From Escherichia coli (GTDB taxonomy: Bacteria > Pseudomonadota > Gammaproteobacteria > Enterobacterales > Enterobacteriaceae): 2,727 bases of DNA. This document shows positions 1 through 27 of this stretch, one piece after another; position 1 is the stretch's first letter; every line of letters begins with the position of its first letter. Location: assembly GCF_003334385.1 (NCBI RefSeq), contig NZ_QOWN01000098.1, one strand, 5' to 3'. The notes beneath the pieces were generated by a model, which was not told the origin of the DNA, searched no databases, and saw nothing but the letters and a program-made list of their open reading frames with translations. Made by a program: the position numbers and the translations under genes.

Positions 1-27
1 CGACATCATCGGACTGTAACCCGACCC

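Follow-up and report, generated by a model that had tools for sequence, protein, structure and literature searches.

The two exact copies of the 9-mer ACTGTAACC in the 2,727-nucleotide stretch of Escherichia coli DNA analysed here (the window) are, we are confident, identical by chance; the sequences that hold them are unrelated and belong to the late (packaging/head) operon of an Stx-type lambdoid prophage (Pankowvirus 2851-like). The first copy adjoins the cos region without belonging to it, and its sequence would be fixed by protein coding. The second would lie in the loosely constrained 5′ part of an intergenic spacer, the functional content of which would be the hairpin, T-run and ribosome-binding site further downstream, and no factor would be needed to recognize the 9-mer. 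As a repeated unit the 9-mer appears to have no function; one copy alone may have a lineage-specific one. The original prediction had offered coincidence or a short recurrent regulatory or processing motif within the operon as the two possible explanations, and the evidence laid out below favors the former.

The window matches, at 95–99% identity, the packaging/head region of lambdoid Stx-converting E. coli prophages (2851, YYZ-2008, 1717), with matches in 94 phage records and in 1255 of 5426 complete E. coli genomes. Its layout, based on the annotation of NC_049943 and NZ_CP013029 together with the open reading frames, with which PHROG and Pfam searches agree, is as follows.

1–19, + strand: 3′ end of an HNH endonuclease gene, annotated as such in NC_049943 and NZ_CP013029 (phrog_589 HNH endonuclease, E 1e-43)
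13–21, + strand: copy 1 of the 9-mer ACTGTAACC, made up of the last base of a Gly codon, Leu CTG, the TAA stop and two non-coding bases
20–308: non-coding region, 289 bp
28–35, + strand: G-run (G8, preceded by CCC), a conserved cos element ending 44 nt before the right genome end
70–79, + strand: probable 10-nt 3′ cohesive end CGCGCCCCGT, assigned by homology with phage Lys8385Vzw, with cleavage placed between 79 and 80
85–102, + strand: A-tract block GCAGAGAAAAAATTCCCG, +6 to +23 from the putative cleavage point and kept down to 65% TerL identity
109–130, + strand: perfect 22-bp palindrome GCCAGTTAACA|TGTTAACTGGC, first member of the GTTAAC cluster
309–872, + strand: terS, small terminase of the Terminase_2 type (Pfam/PHROG), with a GTG start at 309
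869–2530, + strand: terL, large terminase, a distant relative of HK97 gp2
2531–2593: terL/protease–capsid spacer, 63 bp
2541–2549, + strand: copy 2 of the 9-mer ACTGTAACC, non-coding, starting 11 nt past the terL stop, ending 5 nt before the hairpin and predicted to be single-stranded
2555–2581, + strand: terminator-like hairpin GAACTGC-TCCG-GCGGTTT (2555–2572) with its T-run (2570–2581), the conserved feature of the spacer
2583–2596, + strand: Shine–Dalgarno AGGAGG and GTG start (2594) of the prohead protease/major capsid fusion gene
2594 onward, + strand: prohead protease/major capsid fusion gene, GTG start

The original assignments of terS, terL, the protease-like gene and the 63-bp spacer between them are thereby borne out. 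The closest complete-genome match (98.5% identity), a prophage of E. coli 2012C-4227 (L002 / L166), is decayed: there is an internal stop in its terL and in its tape-measure gene, its portal gene is frameshifted, and an IS2 is inserted in a DUF3950 gene just upstream of the HNH gene.

First, the recurrence of the 9-mer is within the reach of chance. Both copies are exact and on the + strand, and, as had been claimed, there is no third in the window, on either strand and with up to one mismatch allowed. As many as 50 distinct 9-mers occur at least twice in the window, as compared to 22 ± 6 in its dinucleotide shuffles, an excess due mainly to the GTTAAC repeat family at 111–235. When 1–308 and 2531–2593 were shuffled, at least one 9-mer was common to the two in 7.9% of 5000 trials; with this frequency and 50 repeated 9-mers, the pair is not commoner than chance would have it, as a recurrent cis-regulatory or processing motif should be. 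At least two matches to ACTGTAACC itself arose in 7 of 200 shuffles, a figure that overstates the significance because the word was picked after the fact. The 50-kb prophage region of E. coli 2012C-4227 holds two sense-strand copies against about 0.22 expected by composition, again a post hoc test. That region has no further sense-strand copy, at other intergenic positions and gene junctions included, and a single antisense copy within the tape-measure gene; none of the other 25 gene ends of this prophage has a similar context. Elsewhere in the element, then, the intergenic positions that the original prediction had proposed to search do not carry the motif.

The surroundings of the two copies have equally little in common. 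When the two copies are aligned, 5 of the 12 flanking positions before them are identical and 2 of the 24 after them, and an extended repeat around the 9-mer is ruled out by these mismatches. Of the two elements said to accompany both copies, ATCA(T/C)C is missing at the second site, which reads ATCACG, and CCGG is so frequent (40 occurrences in the window, or one in about 68 nt) that it carries no information. A sigma-70 promoter scan found no promoter at either copy, and an Rfam search gave no relevant match anywhere in the window. An RNA structure common to both 9-mers was likewise ruled out on predicted folds, in which the copies are unpaired or weakly paired with unremarkable z-scores; the sole stable local structure predicted does not involve the 9-mer.

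Second, the first copy is for the most part the end of a gene. Positions 2–19 read GAC ATC ATC GGA CTG TAA (D-I-I-G-L-stop). Phage 2851 and E. coli 2012C-4227 both have this stretch annotated as the 3′ end of their HNH gene, a gene of the packaging-associated kind that is found adjoining HK97-type terminases. Seven of the nine bases of copy 1 are therefore coding or stop, and only bases 20–21 are non-coding. The description of both copies as intergenic holds for copy 2, in the 2531–2593 spacer, and fails for copy 1, which had been placed in the leader upstream of terS and instead occupies the HNH stop codon, upstream of the cos cleavage site. Close relatives read ACTGTAACC, ACTGTGACC, CCTGTGACC or ACTATGACC at this site, and a relative with 84% TerL identity reads GGGCTCTGA. 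The changes are limited to synonymous or stop positions (GGA/GGC/GGG, CTG/CTA/CTC, TAA/TGA), a signature of selection acting on the protein and not on a motif in DNA or RNA. Across the family, more than 100 relatives show no conservation of the 15 nt before the G-run, in which copy 1 lies, and copy 1 is thus not part of cos; the same lack of conservation between the HNH stop and the G-run gives no support to a cosQ-like role for it, which we reject.

Third, the second copy lies next to, and outside, the feature of the spacer that has been conserved. Close relatives carry ACTGTAACC or CCTGTAACC here, roughly half each (A or C at the first base), and more distant ones have ACGTCAGTTAAYG aligned at this part of the spacer. 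The 7-mer core TGTAACC is invariant at this site in the sampled close relatives, which says little, given that these are about 95–99% identical overall. The hairpin and T-run, by contrast with the 9-mer, are kept directly upstream of GGAGG and the start codon across relatives of 65–99% TerL identity. Among 34 distinct relatives 96.6% of the hairpin cells are paired while the loops vary freely, and at one pair C-G has been replaced by A-U, a compensatory double change that probably arose once. In its common form the hairpin reads ACCCGC-NNNN-GCGGGT, with TTTTT behind it; the close relatives of the window have AACCGC-NNNN-GCGGTT and the window itself AACTGC-TCCG-GCGGTT, in which a C-to-T change at 2558 converts the C-G pair of its closest relatives to U-G and weakens the stem. 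With its G+C-rich stem-loop and subsequent T-run on the sense strand, the element at 2555–2581 has the makings of an intrinsic terminator, and on its sequence we regard it as a putative one; it may end transcription, stabilize the mRNA or tune translation. Two further repeats touch this region: AGGAGGCTG at 301–309 and 2583–2591 is the ribosome-binding site common to terS and the protease/capsid gene, and the 11-mer GCGGTTTTTTT occurs both at the terL end (2513–2523) and in the hairpin tail (2566–2576).

Fourth, the two sites do not behave as a pair. Two TerL scans of IMG/VR yielded 160 loci with 65–99% TerL identity, among which are 39 close relatives with both sites. The 9-mer is exact at both sites in 17 of these, at site 1 only in 10, at site 2 only in 5 and at neither in 7, and in this sample exactness at one site shows no association with exactness at the other (Fisher p = 0.30, n = 39), nor are there matching changes; the copies neither co-evolve nor appear constrained as nucleotides as opposed to codons. 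Even at 97–99% TerL identity the 9-mer is kept inconsistently, and in relatives with TerL identity of 84% or less it is found at neither site, though the neighboring cos blocks and hairpin are kept. The motif is thus not conserved at the corresponding positions of homologous elements, the very outcome that had been named beforehand as speaking against it. Phage Lys8385Vzw, an induced, packaged, particle-forming phage with mapped cos ends (PMC7946995), reads ACTGTGACC at the first site and CCTGTAACC at the second, and hence has the exact 9-mer at neither. Stx2c phage 2851 has no exact copy at site 1.

These observations bear most directly on the idea that the late transcript uses the 9-mer twice as a short cis-acting motif for regulation or RNA processing, for instance as an RNase cleavage site or as the site of a phage or host factor. 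It is true that both copies are sense-strand sequences of one late transcription unit, that both are near gene ends, and that the word is in mild excess over the composition expectation. However, a processing motif would hardly be unconserved in homologues, vary independently at its two sites, be missing from both in the packaged Lys8385Vzw and from the operon's other gene junctions, vary at site 1 in the manner of coding sequence, and lack any flank or structure in common, and we consider this explanation very unlikely. We would give still less credence to a narrower proposal, in which the core CTGTAACC is a short recognition element specific to the lineage, bound for instance by the HNH/terminase complex or by an RNase with the late transcript as its substrate, recently acquired by 2851-like Stx prophages at both ends of the terminase operon and tolerant of single-base variants.

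A different kind of explanation ties the 9-mer to the DNA between the HNH gene and terS. The non-coding DNA past the HNH stop is an HK97-style cos region, spanning window 24–102. Its G-run is kept in more than 100 distinct relatives, at a length of 6–13 G, and the block GGACACCGCGCCCC-TCTCACGCA-AGAAAAAATTCCC is also kept in more than 100 distinct relatives. The Lys8385Vzw record (MT225100) ends ...GGACACCGCCCCCCCT and starts CTCACGCAGAG, and these ends map to window 79/80; for this phage PhageTerm assigned 3′ cohesive ends CGCCCCCCCT (PMC7946995). By homology, the cohesive end of the window would be CGCGCCCCGT, cut at 79/80. The A-tract block that follows at 85–102 is a candidate recognition site for the small terminase. 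Within it, GAAAAAATTCCCG (90–102) has an inverted copy, CGGGCATTTTTTC (135–147), on the other side of the 22-bp palindrome, such that the whole makes a near-symmetric element of about 58 bp. More GGAAAAAAT tracts occur at 180 and 252, and these tracts suggest phased A-tracts and DNA bending.

The palindrome opens a cluster of GTTAAC sites (113, 121, 189, 212 and 227) that accounts for every GTTAAC in the window; throughout 109–238 there are repeats of AAATGTTAAC(T/C)(G/A)G in both orientations. The cluster may represent TerS (cosB-like) sites or, alternatively, duplicated relics of the terS start. In relatives, the ATGTTAAC found at the position of the palindrome is the terS start (ATG TTA ACA). 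For instance, in L040, L101, L117 and others, terS (ATG TTA ACA GCG...) starts right past the A-tract block, at the equivalent of window 119. In the window lineage the terS GTG at 309 is preceded by about 190 additional bp that contain GTTAAC repeats, and a hydrophobic ORF of 24 codons (MLTGCPGIFSVFIFIIQFVAWKKC), without a Shine–Dalgarno sequence, begins at the relic ATG at 119.

Given this cluster, it is conceivable that both copies of the 9-mer are degenerate GTTAAC-type repeats of the cos/terS leader, serving TerS or some other packaging protein as weak additional binding sites. ACTGTAACC and ATGTTAACC (209–217) are alike at 6 of 9 positions, GTCAGTTAAC stands at the equivalent place of the terL spacer in more distant relatives, and CAGTTAAC is the repeat unit of the window leader. 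Yet a six-base likeness is weak evidence, and the 9-mer lacks the palindromic GTTAAC core, having GTAAC in its place. Moreover, the spacer of many relatives has GTTAAT and not GTTAAC, the near-cos GTTAAC of relatives is simply terS codons 1–3 (ATG TTA ACA), and site 1 is already accounted for by coding. Such an origin strikes us as extremely improbable. The same can be said of a relic left by recombination or duplication between the junctions at gene ends, which would make the 9-mer a “boundary” sequence in mosaic lambdoid phages, for although both genes end in TAACCC (HNH TAA-CCCGACCC, terL TAA-CCCTG) and the terL stop context of one relative, TAACCCGACCC (L049 4157–4167), equals window 17–27, probably by chance, the identity ends within 9–11 bases, no longer homology surrounds either copy, and 25 other prophage gene ends lack such a context.

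Chance identity of the two copies is the reading we retain, and the negative result is useful in that there is no new regulatory element to annotate at the 9-mer. Its by-product is a corrected map for a very common E. coli Stx-type prophage family, which now includes the HNH stop, an HK97-like cos, a candidate TerS site and a hairpin after terL; the cos, the candidate TerS site and the terminator-like hairpin are all known kinds of feature.

Several known systems offer close parallels for these features. Like the intrinsic (Rho-independent) terminator-like hairpins between late genes of lambdoid phages, the hairpin in the window spacer combines a G+C stem with a loop of 4 nt and a T-run, and HK97 has an annotated putative terminator between its portal and protease genes. 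The window hairpin differs in its stem, weakened by the C-to-T change (AACTGC for AACCGC), and the 9-mer lies outside it. In the cos of phage lambda, cosQ lies upstream of cosN, and the cosB R-sites and an IHF bend lie downstream. Copy 1, about 60 nt upstream of the putative cleavage point, is roughly where an upstream termination element could sit, and the GTTAAC cluster downstream of cleavage recalls cosB. The terminase families differ, however, as does the polarity of the overhangs, which in lambda are 5′.

The likeness to the HK97 packaging module (HNH gp74–cos–TerS gp1–TerL gp2) goes considerably further. The gene order HNH, cos, terS, terL is the same, with cos and the terminase genes immediately behind the HNH gene, and the TerL of the window is homologous to HK97 gp2 (23% identity over 460 aa, BLASTP E 3e-11). 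In contrast, its TerS, of Pfam family Terminase_2, has no detectable similarity to HK97 gp1 (BLASTP E = 1), the head module differs in that a protease–capsid fusion follows terL in the window and the portal comes after it, and the 9-mer has no counterpart in HK97. An 8-mer at the HNH stop of the window, TAACCCGA, also occurs within the minimal site bound by HK97 TerS, CTAACCCGATTTTTT (positions 15–29 of HK97, with the 8-mer at 16–23 of L083). We treat this match, too, as probably due to chance, since the two TerS proteins are not related and the 8-mer stands at a different place with respect to cleavage. The cos regions themselves agree in several respects. The HK97 G-run ends 42 nt before the right end, as compared to 44 nt in the window, despite the unrelated TerS proteins, and both have an ACCGC-rich end sequence, the HK97 end being ACCGCCGCC. 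HK97 has 3′ overhangs (PMC9410871, PMC11331095), and 3′ cohesive ends, 10 nt long, are likewise found in the close relative of the window, Lys8385Vzw (PMC7946995). Finally, the TerS site of HK97 spans +15 to +29 and is made up of a G and an A-tract (PMC11331095); the A-tract of the window, a short way in from the left end, has a position comparable to this site, even though the two TerS proteins are not detectably related. Judged from its sequence, the window module would work like that of HK97 but with a different TerS family.
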